A DNA stretch of 61,525 nt, counting the filler, from Diploschistes diacapsis (Eukaryota): the NCBI GenBank assembly GCA_023645945.1. It is 6 parts of 6 records of this genome, joined end to end, with 100 filler letters (N's around TTAATTAATTAA, not from the genome) between each part and the next. Parts side by side here need not be neighbours in the genome. Positions count along the whole stretch, not along the records: positions 26,101 to 55,016 come from JALAIB010000140.1; 5 more parts are not named here. One strand, written 5' to 3'. Position numbers and translations under genes: made by a program. Shown one piece after another: positions 6,441-55,116 of this stretch (position 1 is its first letter; each line of letters begins with the position of its first letter). The notes under the pieces were generated by a model that made no database searches, was not told the origin of the DNA, and worked only from the letters and a program-made list of their open reading frames with translations.

Positions 6441-6540
6441 NNNNNNNNNNNNNNNNNNNNNNNNNNNNNNNNNNNNNNNNNNNNTTAATTAATTAANNNN
6501 NNNNNNNNNNNNNNNNNNNNNNNNNNNNNNNNNNNNNNNN
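6441..6540. other. Artificial contig linker N44-TTAATTAATTAA-N44
   Basis: The 12-mer puts stops in all six frames. Identical 100-bp copies occur five times. Confidence 0.98.
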
Positions 6541-12968: not shown

Positions 12969-13068
12969 NNNNNNNNNNNNNNNNNNNNNNNNNNNNNNNN
13001 NNNNNNNNNNNNTTAATTAATTAANNNNNNNNNNNNNNNNNNNNNNNNNNNNNNNNNNNNNNNNNNNN
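12969..13068. other. Artificial contig linker
   Basis: N44-TTAATTAATTAA-N44. Confidence 0.98.
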
Positions 13069-19486: not shown

Positions 19487-19586
19487 NNNNNNNNNNNNNN
19501 NNNNNNNNNNNNNNNNNNNNNNNNNNNNNNTTAATTAATTAANNNNNNNNNNNNNNNNNNNNNNNNNNNNNNNNNNNNNNNNNNNN
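19487..19586. other. Artificial contig linker
   Basis: N44-TTAATTAATTAA-N44. Confidence 0.98.
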
Positions 19587-20160: not shown

Positions 20161-20325
20161 GATTGTCGAAGCTTAGTTTGTATCAGTTTTGAGCTTACTG
20201 ATTGTTCTATAGAGGTTCTTGCTATAGCATTAAGCTTCGAGTGCACCCTCGCTTGACAATTAATCGCTGCGGGACTGGCTATCTAGTTATAGACTATCGG
20301 CCATACAATTAAAAATGGCGGGGCG

Positions 20326-20369
20326 GACCTTTTCGAAGGTCGTGGGTTCGAATCCCAGTGTTGACACCA
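20326..20369 (+). pseudogene. 3' fragment of a type II (Leu/Ser-like) tRNA ending in encoded CCA
   Basis: GACCTT-TTCG-AAGGTC variable-arm-like hairpin, T-arm GTGGGTTCGAATCCCAG, then acceptor strand TGTTGAC, A and CCA. No matching 5' acceptor strand or D-arm was found upstream. Confidence 0.6.
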
Positions 20370-21267
20370 AAAACTCATGGTTCCAGGTTTTATAACCTGA
20401 ATTAAGCCTAATATGGCTAGTTAATCCGTTTCGTTTATTGATGATACTTAACGGACAAGAATTTCGGTCAAAAGCTACGATCGCAATAAAAAGCTACAGT
20501 CGCAAAATTATATAGAAAAAATTATGTGGTAGTTATGGGCTTGGCTTGTGTGGCTTATGTAAGAAGATCGTGGCTTTTCTGGTCAGGTTTCTATCATTAG
20601 CTTTATTTCCCCATTATGCTCGGCCTAATCTTCTGGCAGTTCTCGTCTAACGGAAAGCGACAACAGCTGTACGTGGCGATAGCGCTCATTTGCCTTGCCT
20701 GCATCTTGGTGCCCTTAGCTCCTTCGCTGCCCCTTTAATCTTCTTCTTCCAGAGCATCTCGGATCTATAGCTACCCGCAGGCTATGAGACAACGGCTCAG
20801 CAGAAGGCTCTGGCCTAGTGCGGCTGGTACACGCCACAGCTCATGGTCCCAAGCCAGAGGAGATGAAATGGAATTGGAAGAGAAGGTTGAATGCGGCAGA
20901 GGAGGTTCTGAATAGGGGTTACTTATGTTTGAGAAGACGATCTGGACGTTGTTCTCTATCCTGAACTTATGGAAGTGTACTTAAGATGTTCAATAGTCGT
21001 ATTAGTCAGTTGAATAGTCACTTTAGATAGTCTAAAGCTTCTAATTAAAGCCTTTCGGAGCTTGGAGTTATCTGTATAGCTGTACGATTATAACGCAGTA
21101 ACGCGAGGATCTTTTAAGTTTGAAACAAATCTTTCCTTCCATAATAAGGTCTGAAATGCGACACACCTCATCAACGCTAAAACTGATGTCGTAAGAGTTC
21201 TGAGATTTCAGTTGTCTGTAGAGGATGTAGTACATGTTTTGGAAATGTAGAATTCATATAACACATA

Positions 21268-26000: not shown

Positions 26001-26100
26001 NNNNNNNNNNNNNNNNNNNNNNNNNNNNNNNNNNNNNNNNNNNNTTAATTAATTAANNNNNNNNNNNNNNNNNNNNNNNNNNNNNNNNNNNNNNNNNNNN
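26001..26100. other. Artificial contig linker
   Basis: N44-TTAATTAATTAA-N44. Confidence 0.98.
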
Positions 26101-43734: not shown

Positions 43735-44419
43735 AGAACGGCCCGGAAATATGATTTACTGGCGTTGAACAATACAAAGACAGATCGGTAGACCACCAGG
43801 CATAGCGTCGAGAAAGTTCCTTGCATCCACGGTGCCTTTGCCGGTTCTCATGTATAATTTTAGATTGGGAAAAAGACAGGCTGTGCATTACGATATGTAC
43901 ATAGAGTTCATTACTCAAAACCCTCTCCGCTACTTATCTATCCTTTAGCGCGATCCTTTGAAGTACTCCACAAGCTGGAGTCTTGGCTCCGGAACTGCTG
44001 AACAGGTAGGAAAGCTCCGTCCCATGTTTTGGTTAGCGTGTGAGTTTCAGTGCACAGCGTTCACCTGATAGAAGCCTTATATGAGCTTGCAAAGCGCGAC
44101 CGAGACAGCACACTCCAGTCATAGGACAGCGTAGCCGAAGCCTCATCGCTAAGCAATAACATATAGGCAAGGCGTTCAGGCGCAAGCAGCACCAACCACT
44201 TCGCTTTCAGCCTTTCCTTTCCGCACGAATCTTCTCCGTCACCTCTGTCACTGTCGTTATCTTACTCTATCATTCTTGTCCCTGTCTCCACTGTACTTCA
44301 AAGAAGGAATGCACCGAAATCTCCCAAGCCATGTCTTCTTTGCTAGCATCATGTTCATCTCCTCGAACACGCTCACTATTCTCTTTACAATCTATTACAC
44401 AATTCCCTCTTACCACCTC

Positions 44420-44546
44420 AGCCAAGTTAGCTAGTTCACCATTCCAGGTTCTGCCCTGGCCCGATTCGTGACTTCCCTTGAAGGAAGTCATAGCTGGCGG
44501 TCGACACGAGGTTCGAAACCCTGTGGAGGCACCCTTGGCTTTTTTT
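44420..44546 (+). ncRNA. Putative Pol III structured ncRNA, unit U1
   Basis: AGCCAAG (44420) pairs with CTTGGCT (44534) as a terminal stem. Consensus B-box GGTTCGAAACC at 44510 sits in a hairpin. T7 terminator. Internal helices are GTTAGCTA/TAGCTGGC, CCAGG/CCTGG and GTGACTTCC/GGAAGTCAT. Confidence 0.62.
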
Positions 44547-44708
44547 GGCCTTTCATTGGCCATTTCTACTTCTTTTTGGTATGATACGAGGGTTGGATTT
44601 CTTCCACTAGATATCGGAAGCAAAAGTGCGCAGAATCCCCTTCTACCTATCTCAATGCGCCTTTTCACGCTTTTCGGTCCCTTCTCATCACTATTGTCTT
44701 CTTTATAT

Positions 44709-44825
44709 AACCAAGATAGGGGACTTCCAGATATTCTTGTACTTACATCCCTATCTAGTAGCAGGAAAAGTAAAAAGCGGCCGAAGTGCGCGTTCTAGCC
44801 TGCACAGAGGCAGCCCTTGGCTTTT
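44709..44825 (+). ncRNA. Unit U2 (degenerate copy)
   Basis: AACCAAG...GCGGCCGAA-GTGCG[CGTTCTAGCC]TGCAC-AGAGGCAGCCCTTGGCTTTT. The 3' half aligns with U1 and U3. The TATA abuts the body, suggesting a deletion. Confidence 0.45.
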
Positions 44826-45013
44826 CCCCCACCTCTTTCTGTTCCCCTTTCCTTCTCTATCCTTGTGCAAGAGGGCAATCTGCTTCTGTCGGTTTCTGAA
44901 CTTCGTCAAGTACCAACGTTTATTAGCTTTACTTCATTGCATATTTTCTCGCGTTTAGTTTTCCTCTGACTACTATTCTCCTCTTATATGACGAGACTGA
45001 CTGTCACCACCTC

Positions 45014-45133
45014 AGCCAAGTCGGCAAACTCTCATTCCAGTTTAGTACCCTGGCTGGTCCTAATTGCCCCTTTTCGCAATAGTTGGCGGTCGACGTAGTG
45101 TTCGAGGCTGTGTAGAGGCGGCCTTTGGCTTTT
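45014..45133 (+). ncRNA. Unit U3
   Basis: Full-length paralogue of U1 (ACCACCTCAGCCAAGT...CATTCCAG...CCCTGGC...TGGCGGTCGAC...GTTCGA...GAGGC...TTGGCTTTT). TATAT at -29. The same helices are kept with different bases. Confidence 0.6.
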
Positions 45134-45629
45134 CATTTTATGCCATCTTTTTGCTTTGCATCCGTTGAATATAGGAGCGAGGAAGTGCACAGATGCTTCT
45201 TCTATCCAAGTCCGCCGCGTCCTTTCACGCCTGATCGTACCCCCGCGGGTACCACATCTGGCTTGCATGGTACGGTGGGCAGGCAGAGTGTTAGCGAAGT
45301 GAGGTGTACTCACCTCAGAGATATGTACAGCACTGTAGGTGATAGCGCACAGGCGATTGTTACGCATCTCAAAGGTTCACTCCGTGTGGGCGCGCTCTGA
45401 GCTACAGTCTCAGTTCTATTGTTCCTTTCGTGCCTATGCCTGAGAATGGAACTTGCTCTCCTCTATCAGAATTACTGCGCGTTAGTCTTTTTACAGTCTC
45501 TGGTACCAGTGCGCCTTCGCCCTGCTAAACAACTCCCTCCTTTCTCCGCTTCCAGAAAACCTCCTTCCCAATCCTCCAAATTCAAAATTAAGCGAATTCT
45601 ATATATCCCGCAACAACCCCGTAAATCTC

Positions 45630-45793
45630 AGCCAAGTAACAAAAGACACATGGCGGACCACAGCCAAGGCGTTCTTACCCACTCAACACGGGAAAATATC
45701 TCCTCGGTACTAGCCCACGGAGTCTGAGCCTTGCCCTTGGTACCGGCAGGAGATGATATCGAAACTCGCCGTAGGCTCCTTGGCTTTTTTTTT
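45630..45793 (+). ncRNA. Unit U4 (long variant)
   Basis: TATATAT at -30. AGCCAAG at 45630 with a second copy at 45662. CGGC..GAG/CTCGCCG hairpin carrying ATATCGAAAC, then AGGCTCCTTGGC and T9. Confidence 0.55.
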
Positions 45794-46131
45794 GCTTTCT
45801 TTTTTGCACTTCTTGGCACAGGCGCCGCGTCTATGTTTCGCTCTGTCGAGGAGCTTAAGCTATGGATGGCCTGTGCGGATGCAAGGAAGTAGGCACATAC
45901 ATGTGAGAGGAGATACGCGGTCACCATCTCCCACTAGCGAAGGAAGCGGTGTCTTTTGCAGGACAGCTAGGTAAACGCAAAGAAAAGGCGAAGCTTGTAG
46001 TTTCTCTCATGACCTCTTGATCCTCCTCTCGCTTTTCTTTGTCGCTGGGTTTGGATACTTCTCTCAAAAGTCACTCAGTCAAGCCTCGCAGCTATCAAGG
46101 TTTATAAAACTAAAGAAGATCCATGGTCCTC

Positions 46132-46232
46132 AGCCAGGTTAGCTGACACGAAAGGCTAGGCGCCTAAATCTCTTGCTTGCAGACTACTTGGGGTTCGATT
46201 CCCTACGTTGCTTTCATCCTTCTCCTTTTTTT
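46132..46232 (+). ncRNA. Unit U5 (short variant)
   Basis: TATAAAA at -29, CTCAGCCAGGTTAGCTG head, consensus B-box GGTTCGATTCC at 46192, and T7 at 46226. The terminal stem is weak. Confidence 0.5.
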
Positions 46233-47370
46233 GCTCTGTTTCTGCCGTCTCATGTTTTCGGCCAAGGCTGATGATTCTTGAAAGAGCAATGATGTCGCTG
46301 TATTGGGAAGGGGAGCCGTGGTACTTGCCTGTGAAACTATGAATTTGGTGGGAGGAAAGGGAGATGGTGTCAAAGCGTGGATAGGTCTGTGCGGACAATG
46401 GATATGAAAGAAACTCTAGACATGCAAATCCCGGATCTCGATATTTGCGCACTCGAGCGTTGGCCATATAATTACGTATTTCGTAGGGGCCGGCGGAGGT
46501 TTTAGCGATAGCCTATAGATTCTCTATAAAGATATTGCCTTTTTTGGATTAGCGCTCTTTGTATCCATTTCCCGCTTCATCAACTTCAATTTCGAACCTC
46601 CTCGATGCTAGTATGAAAACTTCATCTCCCGTGACCGCAACGTATCTTGTGCCACCCATTGTCAAAGAGCAGCTTCTCTTTTATCTCTCAGACCAGACGC
46701 GACATCCATTTAACATCGCGCTCAATCCGTCTCATCACAAGCATCCACTCACCCTACCCAAGTCAGTCACAGCTTGGCTTACATCTATCCCGTTTATCCC
46801 AGCCTAACGCTTTGGCTAGGGCCGAGTATCATCAATTCAGCAACAGCAGCGGCGCCATCGTTTGTTCGCCATGATCGTGACAGGGAGAAGAGAACGGCGC
46901 TAGTACTAAAGCAGTAAGAGTTGTGCTAACTCAGGGGCTAGAAGGTACCACCCTTGCCACCATACACAATCAACTATGCCAACAATAGCGTCCAGCGCAG
47001 CATCAATGAATCTCAGTGCCCGGAAAGCCGAATTCATCCTGATTCTACATGACAGATCTACCCGCGGAAGTGCACCATCAGGCTCAGCTCCCCCGGCCTT
47101 GCCTTGCCGTCACTGGTGTGGTTTCGCTATATATATCAGTTTAGTTCAATACTGGCACAATCCAGTATTGTTGGTCTTTTGGCTATGTGGCCTAGCAGTA
47201 CTAAACTGGCGCTTTGCAATATCGCACTGGCGCACCGTGGATCGATCGTGACTCATACACACCGTCTTCCTCCGTCTTACCTTCTTAGCTTGTCCAACCA
47301 CGCTCACTCGCTCTTATCCCCCATCCCATCAAACTCTCACTATTATACATAAGTTGTGAGCAATACCACT

Positions 47371-47495
47371 AGCCAAGTTAGCTGGATTAGATATGGTTAT
47401 GTCCTCTTCTAACTCTACCAACCAGGTAAGTTGCTTGAAGGGGACTAGAGGGTTCAATTCCCTTGAACTGCGGCCTTATGCTGCGCTTGGTTTTT
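47371..47495 (+). ncRNA. Unit U6
   Basis: TATTATA at -30, ACCACTAGCCAAGTTAGCTG head, B-box GGTTCAATTCC at 47451 inside a GAGGG/CCCTT stem, then CTTGGTT and a T5CT4 tract. Confidence 0.6.
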
Positions 47496-50028
47496 CTTTT
47501 ATCTGCTTATCTATTGTTTTCATGTTTGTAAGGGTATCGGGGATTTTATGTGCTCAAAGAACGACGGCAGGAAGGTAAGCAGGTGTATAGTAATATATGA
47601 TTTGCGCATTCCTTCCTGTGCTCCAGTTTTGATTGCATCTCGCGTTCTTGTTTCCTTGAAGCCACATCAATTATCTGCCGCGCTGCTTCCAGTAATTGTC
47701 ATCGGAGCGTTGCTCTTGTTTTGGTACGGTGAGCTTCATCCCTCGCTCCACTTGGGACGTCAACGTCAAGGCGAACTCGGACTTGAGCACAGAATCTACA
47801 CGCAGGCCCAGATCTAAAGACAAACACGCACACAGGGCGCGGACTGGGATTTGTACTAAGAGCTGACCGGTGTCGACACACCGCCGCTCTACAACCCAGG
47901 TTAGGACAACAACCCTATCTTCTACCGTCTATCTACCGTCCACCGTCCCGCCCCTCACTCTATCATGTACTCGACACTAGGCTATATCACTCCCCCTCCC
48001 CCCACATATTTACCGTGACCATTGCACTTCCTATCTCCTATATTTCCACCTCCAACCCGCTGTTTAGTCAGCGCCGTTGGCGAACGGTCCCATGTACAGT
48101 TCTTCGTTCTTCATCCGATAAGGGTATCGTTGTCTTCGTACAGGTGTATGCTACGCGTCCACGTGCATACAGTACAGCACTCAGGATGATGCCTCATGAG
48201 TTTAGCTCACGGGTGTCAGCGTCTGCTGCCAATGGACTGAAGTACATGTATGGTACATGTATGTAAGCACGGGCTGAATGCGGACCTGTTATAACAACCA
48301 CTTTAACGTATCACAAGCCCTTCTCTTTTCTCAGCTCAGCTGTTGGGACTCGGAAGAAGTGCGGGCAGTCTCACCTCGGTATTTGAAGGGGAGGAAACAC
48401 AGATTAGAGATCCCGTCAGCCATTCTACTGTGCCGGAAGGGCCGGGATCCCTTTTTTGGGTGAGAGTACTGTTTGGATTGGAAGAGATATCATTGTTCGG
48501 AGGGAGCGAGGTCTGGATGAACCGTCGCTGGCTGGTGGGCCTGAAAGTCCAGGCCGACGGAGGCTCATTCTGGATGCTGGTCCGACATCCGCACATGTAA
48601 CAAGGAAGGGCATATTGAAGACGCACATGCTTTGGAAAGGAGGATGTGTAATCCATTGCTCTCTGCAAAAGTACGCGTCATATCTCTCTTAGTAGTCCTT
48701 CTTACACAAAACAGCACGTCCACGCCTGTACCCTAATATCATTTCCACCGAACAATCTCAAGCTTCGTCTACCTCCACCTTCCCTCCCCCCGCCTTCTCT
48801 ACCTAAGTTCCCCCGCTTCACCCTCGCCAGTGCCCATCTTCAAGCCTCCTCAAACTCTCATTCCCACACCGTTACTCCCACTTTCTCCACCCCCAGGGAG
48901 TGAACATACCCCTTCCCCGCTCCACCAGCTGCACCCCTCAGCGCCTCATCCTCCCCCAACCCATCCTTCTCCCGGCGCCCCCTTCTCAAAAAAGACCAAT
49001 ACCACGAACACCACGGGAGCACCACACCCACCAGAAGCCGCTGCGAGCTCAAGGGAGTTTGCTATCCACCACCCATAGCCAGACCCACCCTCACACTATA
49101 TAGACACCGAAACCAGCCCCAGCACCCCAGCCAAGCCCACAACCGAACCCGGGCTCGAACCCTCTACCCGCCAACGACGACGACGACGACGACGACGATA
49201 ACGCAGCCTGCAGTAGCGGCCGCGCCCGCCATTCCCGCCGGAGTTCCCTTACCGGTTGTACCTGCGGGGGTCTGCGTATGCGTCTGTGGGGGAGAGCAGT
49301 TCCGTTGACGGGGACGCTGCCCCGCAGGTGATGGTGAGGGGTGAGGAGTGAGGCGATGGGATTTCATGTTGTTATTCACCTGCACTTTAACCCTCACCCG
49401 ACGGGGAACAAGAAAAAAAGGAAAAAGGAAAATGCGTTATAGGAGCACCTTAAAGCAAACGCAAAATGCAAATGCAAATGTAAGAGGGGATATGGACAGA
49501 GGGCAGCTCACTGCTCGCCTCCTTTTGCCTGCGGACGATGTTGATGCTGATATTTCGGGAACAAGGTTAATCTAATGGTGGGAGATGGGATGAGAGAAAG
49601 AGAAAGGGGATGAGAGAAAGAGAAAGAGAAAGAGAACGGATTGGAAGCCGGCGGATTCCTAGTGGCGTAGAAGAACGCGGTACATGGACTTGGAGATTAT
49701 TTTCGTTCATGAGGTTTCAGTGGGAAGGGTTGATAAGATGCAGACGCATCGGTGAAAGCCATCAATAAAACCCCGGAGATGGTTGCTTGTATTCTAAATA
49801 TTCGATTGGCTCGGTAGCGTTCATATAGCTTCTCGTTTTTGCTCGCTCATGCTCGCTCATTGGGATCTTGTAGCTCTATACCCACTGTACCCACGATTCC
49901 TCCAAGTCTTGCATGTCGCGTGCTACCTGTTGCAAGCTCTTACGCATAGTCAAGGCTCAACAAACGAGCAGGCGCACAAGCTCCCTACCCACGATTCCAG
50001 AATAAACCTCACGACCGCCCAACACAGA

Positions 50029-55016: not shown

Positions 55017-55116
55017 NNNNNNNNNNNNNNNNNNNNNNNNNNNNNNNNNNNNNNNNNNNNTTAATTAATTAANNNNNNNNNNNNNNNNNNNNNNNNNNNN
55101 NNNNNNNNNNNNNNNN
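55017..55116. other. Artificial contig linker
   Basis: N44-TTAATTAATTAA-N44. Confidence 0.98.

Follow-up and report, generated by a model that had tools for sequence, protein, structure and literature searches.

A tandem array of putative tRNA-derived RNA polymerase III genes in Diploschistes diacapsis

The stretch of DNA analysed here (the window) comprises 61,525 nucleotides (nt) of the Diploschistes diacapsis assembly GCA_023645945.1. Its 28.9-kb piece at 26101-55016, taken from record JALAIB010000140.1, contains a 3.5-kb gene-poor gap, and in this gap, within 44380-47500, six short units (U1 to U6) follow each other on the + strand with starts at 44420, 44709, 45014, 45630, 46132 and 47371. 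A cluster of six co-oriented, structured RNA polymerase III (Pol III)-type genes with a panhandle fold had been proposed at this site (the original prediction), and all six openings were indeed found on the + strand at these positions. A further fragment, U7, was newly found 1.6 kb from the array in inverted orientation. By their sequence, the units appear to descend from a tRNA gene. They and their upstream TATA-like boxes are the following.

44393..44397, + strand: TATA-like box of U1, TATTA at -27
44420..44546, + strand: U1, the best-preserved unit; 7-bp terminal helix AGCCAAG/CTTGGCT, then UUAGCU; interior of two internal hairpins inside an enclosing 7-bp stem; T-hairpin with B-box at 44510-44520, 9-nt spacer, T7
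44709..44826, + strand: U2, apparently decayed; AACCAAG opening leading to an A.C helix mismatch; degenerate B-box; T4
44984..44989, + strand: TATA-like box of U3, TTATAT from -30
45014..45134, + strand: U3, a paralogue of U1; TTATA from -30; CA start; B-box with two mismatches; T4
45600..45606, + strand: TATA box of U4, TATATAT from -30
45630..45794, + strand: U4, 156 nt; TATATA from -30; CA start; terminal helix; T9
46102..46109, + strand: TATA box of U5, TTATAAAA from -30
46132..46232, + strand: U5, apparently a tRNA-shaped relic; AGCCAGG, UU and a D-arm-like hairpin (4 bp, 9-nt loop); TTATA from -30
47341..47349, + strand: TATA-like box of U6, TATTATACA from -30, overlapping CACTATT at -33
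47371..47495, + strand: U6; terminal helix AGCCAAG/CTTGGTT; D-like hairpin; T-arm with B-box at 47451-47461; T5; TATTA from -30
49129..49172, - strand: U7, inverted 3'-half fragment; TGGCGG, T-hairpin with the perfect B-box GGTTCGAGCCC, 15-nt spacer, CTTGGCT

Four units open with AGCCAAG, U2 with AACCAAG and U5 with AGCCAGG. As predicted, five units are closed by a complementary strand, which is CTTGGCT in U1, U2 and U4, TTTGGCT in U3 and CTTGGTT in U6, lies 114-156 nt from the start (U1 121, U2 114, U3 117, U4 156, U6 122 nt) and runs directly into T7 (U1), T4 (U2), T4 (U3), T9 (U4) or T5 (U6). These five units have a 7-bp terminal helix adjoining an oligo-T tract, and the helix takes in the -1 and 73 positions of a tRNA. 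In U5, no closing strand of these three kinds was found; T4-T9 tracts are present in all six units. Consensus B-boxes had been claimed for U1, U5 and U6 and are located at 44510, 46192 and 47451, inside canonical T-loop hairpins with the G-C-closed loops TTCGAAA, TTCGATT and TTCAATT, respectively. They represent three of the five matches to GGTTCRANNCC on both strands of the window. The B-box consensus is thus present in three of the six units, and of the A-box the first half (TRGC) alone is kept, in U1, U5 and U6.

The unit pattern exceeds chance. AGCCAAG occurs 25 times in the window against 10.7 expected, a count reached by none of 100 shuffles; the pattern GTTCRANNY N8-38 YTTGGYT, which joins the T-loop to the 3' strand, is found six times (0.26 expected), and GGCGG N2-16 GTTCRA five times (0.91 expected). 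Chance was rejected because all three counts are above expectation. The array has a period of about 600 bp, with spacings of 594, 616 and 502 bp, followed by 1239 bp spanning an inserted repeat. The words CTTGGCT/TTTGGCT also occur between U5 and U6 at 46773-46779 and 46814-46820, with no T tract and no recognisable unit upstream, and might either match by chance or stem from older, relic members of the array.

Upstream of the units, a TATA-like 5-mer starts exactly at -30 in U3-U6 (four of six), at -27 in U1 and at -6 in U2, where it adjoins the start. For four of six at one offset, P is about 1e-6, as estimated with the local 5-mer density of 0.0058 per base and 60 offsets allowed. None of 47 other AGCCAAG-like sites in the window has a TATA-like 5-mer at -30; one such site has it at -32 and is the complement of the U7 3' strand. 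All three + strand occurrences of CACTATT in the window are located 5' of a unit, at -46 in U1 and at -33 in U6. The start context is C|A in U1, U3, U4 and U5. The -30 spacing of the TATA box is kept though the remaining upstream sequence is barely alignable. Upstream TATA boxes combined with internal tRNA-type boxes occur in fission-yeast and plant tRNA genes and in the yeast gene for U6. Pol III-type genes had been predicted from B-box and oligo-T, and the corresponding sequence anatomy, here with a TATA box at -30, a pyrimidine-A start, a B-box and oligo-T, is supported for the units.

B-boxes and TATA boxes clustered in a 3.5-kb gene-poor gap might also act at the level of DNA, as a tDNA-like or extra TFIIIC (ETC)-like cluster of TFIIIC/TFIIIB sites serving as a boundary in the chromatin between the Pol II genes on either side; tDNAs and ETC sites serve as boundaries in yeasts. 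This is unlikely, however, as just three of the six units have the B-box consensus, and the kept pairing of the 3' strand with the 5' end, together with the T tracts, points to a constraint on RNA or transcription.

The ancestry of the units is suggested by their similarity to the general tRNA consensus. After the helix, U1, U5 and U6 read UUAGCU, matching U8-A9-G10-C11-U12 of the tRNA class with a UAGCUCAGU D-arm, and the GGUCG before the T-stem matches the tRNA variable loop. U5 has the geometry of a tRNA: its anticodon arm is unpaired, its consensus T-arm (B-box 46192-46202) abuts a 5/7-paired acceptor strand, and T7 follows 13 nt further 3' of this strand, with no panhandle. In U6, a 45-nt hairpin has a base that, in a fold read by eye, corresponds to an anticodon stem GTCCT/GGGAC with the loop C-U-UCU-A and a 28-nt insert at the canonical 37/38 intron position. 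The 3' strand of the central 9-bp hairpin of U1 has the motif CTTGAAGG in common with this anticodon-like hairpin, and an extra 21-nt 3' hairpin of U6 resembles a partial tandem duplication. Because of UUAGCU at 8-12, GGUCG at the variable loop, the canonical T-loop, the geometry of U5 and the anticodon-arm-like hairpin of U6, the units clearly look tRNA-derived and do not form an unrelated, unassignable RNA class as had been assumed.

U6 with its anticodon-arm-like stem, U5 with its tRNA geometry and two insert-bearing tRNA-like loci with the same opening in metagenomes (see below) would also be compatible with functional tRNA genes that, like those of red algae and nucleomorphs, carry more than one intron or introns of a non-canonical kind, or with permuted tRNA genes. 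We regard this as very unlikely. ARAGORN called no tRNA gene in the window, with or without introns. Among 31,114 single-deletion variants of the units (4-90 nt removed, anticodon intron of 0-60 nt), none was called at default stringency and two weak calls, both for U6, were obtained at -ps95, whereas the two metagenomic loci used as positive controls, L004 and L013, were called correctly; tRNA intron models were rejected by this test. For U5, a weak tRNA-Leu(taa) was reported at -ps90 only. Searches of the region and of single units gave no match to the tRNA family RF00005 at E<=10, and the only Rfam tRNA at this level was tRNA-Sec in U6 (14.9 bits, E 1.2). A 7-nt anticodon loop with U33 and a purine at 37 is absent from U1-U5 and, as read by eye, becomes readable in U6 only after removing 28 nt. 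Permuted tRNA genes were rejected since the A-box-like and B-box elements stand in normal order. The original prediction that no anticodon arm or cloverleaf forms thus stands as far as ARAGORN and Rfam find no cloverleaf, but U6 keeps its anticodon-arm-like hairpin. Similarly, the extra nucleotides predicted between T-arm and acceptor strand were found as a spacer of 9-21 nt in U1, U2, U3, U4 and U6, whereas in U5 alone the T-arm abuts the strand. A spacer of 9-10 nt is too short for a bulge-helix-bulge intron. In comparison with canonical tRNA genes, the units share the acceptor-type helix, U8-A9-G10-C11-U12 (U1, U5, U6), GGUCG with the T-arm/B-box and the oligo-T terminator but have no cloverleaf and, in U1-U4, no 7-nt anticodon loop. 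The claim that they are not canonical tRNAs was borne out, and the RNAs would not be able to act as tRNAs.

Relatives were sought by a metagenome scan with a pattern of the 13-nt opening joined to the B-box, which returned 18 loci. Complete tRNA-like genes, bearing terminators and containing inserts, were found at L004 (two in tandem) and L013, where the TTAGCT of the opening lies at exactly U8-A9-G10-C11-U12. As the opening was part of the scan pattern, these loci lend limited support to the ancestry. The remaining 15 of the 18 loci are tRNA-Lys-like or SINE-like (short interspersed nuclear element), neighbours of bacterial tRNA genes (tRNA-Arg), or chance. The two L004 genes, at 1501-1612 and 1699-1823 of an unrelated AT-rich eukaryotic metagenome contig of 58 kb, have the same acceptor, D-arm and T-arm and differ in anticodon arm and insert (35/36 and 51/52 nt). 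ARAGORN places their inserts at odd positions and reads Ile-tat and Asn-gtt; by eye, with a 37/38 intron, they read as Val(UAC) and Thr(UGU). L013, at 1501-1611 of a fungal-looking contig with a GC content of 53%, is a tRNA-like gene with a terminator and a 37-nt insert, which ARAGORN calls Pro(agg) with the insert at 31/32; a canonical 37/38 intron reading was not found.

Contigs of three DNA runs, labelled 'lichen metagenome' and 'rock metagenome', were compared with the window at >=80% likeness: X1 (probably the source sample) as well as X2 and X3, for which the listed pieces diverge from the window by about 2-6%. Depth in X1 is flat, with 99.1 over U1-U5 and 74.4 over U6, and no unit had extra depth in X1, X2 or X3. 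A high-copy element roughly 100 bp long is inserted at 47115-47230, between U5 and U6 and about 150 bp 5' of the latter, with summed depths of 23,951 in X1, 11,133 in X2 and 645 in X3 and many loose ends at 47117/47128 and 47215/47223. Because of its terminal inverted repeats CAGTTTAGT...ACTAAACTG and its TA-rich site, this element looks like a miniature inverted-repeat transposable element (MITE).

AGCCAAG and CTTGGCT are formally inverted repeats, and an inverted partial copy, U7, lies 1.6 kb away. The units might thus be copies of mobile elements, either heads of tRNA-derived SINEs or MITEs with 7-bp terminal inverted repeats, which is most improbable. They show no extra depth in the three runs at >=80% likeness, compared with 23,951x for a true repeat. 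Their flanks are CTC (5') and TTT (3'), with no target-site duplication, and an A-rich or simple-repeat tail is absent. They are also co-oriented with a period of about 600 bp, and besides U7 the 61.5-kb window holds no further copy. The head of AfuSINE2-type fungal SINEs is described as tRNA-like with Pol III boxes (PMC5063351); in contrast to such elements, the units are neither dispersed nor multi-copy and lack target-site duplications and a tail. Heads of a high-copy SINE with target-site duplications would have refuted the original prediction, and the depth and the flanks speak against them.

From these sequence features, it seems somewhat more probable than not that tRNA-derived genes, built in their sequence like Pol III transcription units, were amplified locally in tandem and make up a birth-and-death family. 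The ancestor would have been a tRNA-like gene of which the acceptor helix, U8-A9, the bases that begin the D-stem and form the first A-box half, GGUCG and the T-arm with the B-box were kept, and which gained a spacer of about 9-10 nt between the T-arm and the 3' strand as well as a freely changing centre. TFIIIB would be positioned by the TATA-like box at -30, aided by TFIIIC on the surviving B-box. Transcription would start from the A of AGCC in its pyrimidine-A context and stop in the oligo-T, and the products would be leaderless 5'-triphosphate RNAs of about 115-156 nt, whose first and last 7 nt pair and whose remaining 3' U-tail would bind La. Perhaps two to four copies are live: U1 and U6 seem intact, the same may hold for U3 and U4, and U2, U5 and U7 give the impression of decayed copies. 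As a weak guess, the RNAs might serve as lineage-specific protein-binding riboregulators or as small-RNA precursors.

What the units have in common lies mainly at their ends. The first 14 nt match at 7-13 of 14 positions in all 15 unit pairs, and the last 7 nt at 5-7 of 7 positions among U1-U4 and U6, with 9 of the 10 pairs at 6-7; for most interiors and upstream flanks, the similarity between units hardly differs, if at all, from the shuffled level. In U1-U4, a common 3' domain consists of GGCGG(U/C)CGA, the T-hairpin, (R)GAGGCNNC and the 3' strand. Bases flanking the T-stem can pair and lengthen the T-hairpin. In U1, U2, U3, U4 and U7, 71% of the cells of this extended hairpin are paired, compared with 29-49% when the partner is slid. 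Its covariation of 0.42 exceeds the shuffled value of 0.29 but is reached by 26 of 500 shuffles. The pairing thus finds weak support in the covariation of the paralogues. A covariance model of the 3' domain (CM R1) was trained on U1, U2, U3, U4 and U7. It found no further copy in the window, the best sequence outside the training set being U6 with 9.9 bits, followed by noise. The training sequences themselves score 55.7 (U1), 50.5 (U2), 45 (U4) and 35.3 bits (U7).

Minimum free energies (MFE) were compared with 200 dinucleotide shuffles per unit. The resulting z-scores are -2.52 for U1 (MFE -46 kcal/mol, 1/200 shuffles equally good), -2.60 for U6 (2/200), -1.03 for U4, -0.27 for U3, +0.25 for U2 and +2.38 for U5. 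The terminal pairs of U1 have probabilities of 0.72-1.0 and the helix of U2 at most 0.4. The topologies differ, since U1 forms two nested three-way junctions and U6 a five-armed, cloverleaf-like structure. U3 has 71% identity to U1 in its 3' 55 nt, and its position 45096 is C in X2 and X3, turning a T-stem U.G pair into C-G. In U4, the interior forms a long hairpin of about 17 bp and contains a second AGCCAAG at 45662; its T-hairpin and B-box are lost with TCGAAAC as a remnant. U7 has neither a T tract nor a 5' half and is preceded by a (GTC)n run. By modelling, no fold is common to the units beyond the terminal helix and the T-hairpin. Of the panhandle claimed for the units, the 7-bp terminal helix of five stands, but a common fold beyond the ends and the T-hairpin does not, nor does U5 have a closing strand.

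Several of the results weigh against a family of living Pol III genes. As to structure, only two of the six units (U1, U6) fold better than shuffles, so that the claim of structured RNAs holds for these two and not for the other four (z -1.0 to +2.4). Five spacer controls gave z-scores of 0.0, 0.2, -2.5, 0.4 and 0.0, the third of which, 45200-45320, equals U1. U3, when forced into the fold of U1, reaches -13 to -24 kcal/mol compared with its MFE of -35 (11-22 worse). The RNAalifold consensus of five units is -1.6 kcal/mol, essentially no common fold, from a MAFFT alignment that misplaces 3' ends. The terminal helix shows no compensatory change across the units, only two G.U pairs and one A.C mismatch. 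As to signals, the A-boxes are half conserved only, and the T tracts of U2 and U3 are not longer than T4. As to relatives, the architecture of spacer and panhandle is present in none of the 18 metagenome loci, L004 and L013 having no spacer. Among the 40 of 150 differences listed for X2 and X3, 9 lie in units, with about 9.3 expected by length, and no sign of purifying selection is seen at that depth. In one X2 variant, 6 nt (47364-47369) are missing from the interval that separates the U6 start from its TATA box. The spacer 45200-45320, between U3 and U4, has an MFE of -45.7 kcal/mol (z -2.52) and contains the GC-rich palindromes GTACCCCCGCGGGTAC and GAGGTGTACTCACCTC, with no Rfam match.

These results bear on a simpler view, in which all copies are dead relics of a tandemly duplicated tRNA gene and any residual transcription is functionless. 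It would be in line with the clear degeneration of U2, U5 and U7, the lost T-arm of U4, the missing common fold with four of six z-scores unremarkable, and the changes in X2/X3, which are not depleted in units. Indels of the relatives lie in U4, in U5 and just 5' of U6: in X2, 7 nt are deleted from the apical loop of U4 at 45719 and this unit also has three substitutions, and an X3 contig skips 46210-46256 at the end of U5. Among the differences listed, U1 has 2 in 121 nt, both in unpaired linkers, and U3 has 1 in 117 nt, with higher values in the spacers next to them (7/111 and 10-12/170). However, under neutral decay the ends, the T tracts and the -30 spacing of the TATA box should be lost no more slowly than the interiors, yet all of them persist, and U1 and U6 keep perfect T-loops, stable folds and T5-T7. 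A mosaic in which the ends, the T-loop region, the TATA box at -30 and the T tracts are kept while the interiors drift would be hard to obtain by neutral decay. We therefore regard an array of relics alone as a real but lesser possibility. Repeat-induced point mutation as a cause of the divergence was rejected, with composite indices <=0 in the gap.

No match to a known RNA family at gathering score was obtained with Rfam 15 in the whole window, as predicted. The best sub-threshold hits at E<=10 were the tRNA-Sec match of U6 mentioned above and the tRNA-like mascRNA in U5 (12.4 bits, E 3.9), which also gave a 13-nt tmRNA T-loop match far below threshold. Searches of the region and of U1, U5 and U6 singly at E<=10 yielded no match of note to Vault, Y_RNA, sbRNA, 5S, SRP, the U6 family or snoRNA; the absence of a 5S rRNA match had been foreseen.

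Rodent BC1 RNA, yeast ZOD1 and human tRNA look-alikes are descendants of tRNA genes that keep Pol III elements but not the fold or function of a tRNA. They are single or dispersed loci, whereas the units form a tandem array with a conserved panhandle and a TATA box at -30. Animal vault RNAs are described as products of clustered genes with type 2 boxes A and B; they measure 80-143 nt, consist of a conserved handle around a variable centre and are likely related to tRNA (PMC9179338, PMC7916137). A vault-type panhandle with variable centre was found in five of the six units at 114-156 nt, U4 with 156 nt being above that range. The vault-like layout that had been noted holds with regard to the handle, the variable centre, the U tract and the clustering. 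In the VTRNA1 cluster (RF00006), paralogues with Pol III boxes, a handle of paired ends, a variable centre and a U tract lie in one locus. However, no RF00006 match was obtained at E<=10, and the handle of the units measures 7 bp only. Vault particles and genes for the major vault protein (MVP) are reported absent from fungi (PMC3762200, PMC7916137). Y RNAs and nematode sbRNAs are described as small Pol III RNAs with paired ends, a variable loop, a U-tail and multi-copy or clustered genes (PMC4726728), and bacterial Y RNAs as containing a tRNA-like module (PMC4201824). The units resemble them in conserved paired ends, variable interior, U-tail and clustered genes, but differ by the missing Rfam match, by an unbulged 7-bp helix and, as judged by eye, by the lack of a bulged-C Ro-binding helix and of a UUAUC loop. 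Open-access full text yielded no description of RNA families, be they vault-like, Y-like or derived from tRNA, among the Pol III products of filamentous ascomycetes, lichen-forming ones included. By this comparison, the locus was filed as a tRNA-derived Pol III family with a vault-type layout, membership in the vault or Y family failing the Rfam models.

A more far-reaching interpretation, which appears rather doubtful, would be an expressed, lineage-specific family of vault- or Y-RNA-like Pol III panhandle RNAs that was born from a tRNA gene in a filamentous ascomycete, whose lineage is said to have no vault particles, and of which U1, U6 and perhaps U3 and U4 are live. Handle and U-tail would bring in one and the same protein, for instance La, an export factor or a protein of the TROVE type, the variable centres would give different partners or small RNAs, and the vault/Y design would have been re-invented independently and recently.

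If some of the tRNA-derived copies are expressed, the array would be a rare fungal case of a tRNA gene becoming a new class of small Pol III RNA, and intermediate and dead copies at one locus would show the steps, namely how the cloverleaf was lost, how spacer and panhandle were gained and how the genes came to depend on a TATA box upstream. A comparable origin is assumed for animal vault RNAs. Very few Pol III products of filamentous fungi are known, and expression would contribute new ones. If none is expressed, the locus would be an ordinary decaying tRNA-gene array, chiefly of interest to annotators because tRNA finders and Rfam miss it. In either case, the array is less exotic than first proposed, given its tRNA descent, the decay of about half of the copies and the lack of a common fold beyond the ends.

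The genes proposed to flank the array were mia40 and NIPSNAP. An upstream open reading frame (ORF) of 281 amino acids (aa) gave a weak CHCH match, which remained under the Pfam cut-off; for NIPSNAP, there was no Pfam match among 25 ORFs scanned at 41.3-51.4 kb. A Sey1/RHD3-type ORF lies on another contig of the window, and this ORF, the CHCH ORF, the presence of long, intron-poor ORFs and the labels of the runs point to a fungus. The gaps at 6441-6540, 12969-13068, 19487-19586, 26001-26100 and 55017-55116 each consist of N44, TTAATTAATTAA and N44. Because every gap holds this six-frame stop linker, the window is a chain of separate draft or metagenome-assembled contigs, and synteny across the linkers is meaningless.

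Around U7, at 49086-49200 on the + strand, CACTATATAG is located 32 nt 5' of the AGCCAAG that is the complement of the U7 3' strand. Behind this AGCCAAG, a (GAC)n microsatellite lies in a 134-aa stop-to-stop frame without Pfam match, and CACTATATAG may belong to a Pol II promoter, to a part of the relic or to coding sequence. On a different contig, at 20320-20376 (+ strand), a sequence similar to the 3' half of a tRNA comprises an anticodon-arm-like hairpin, GGTCG, the perfect T-arm GGTTCGAATCC and an acceptor strand. With no matching 5' half and with an encoded CCA and an A-rich run at its end, it looks like a retro-copied tRNA fragment.

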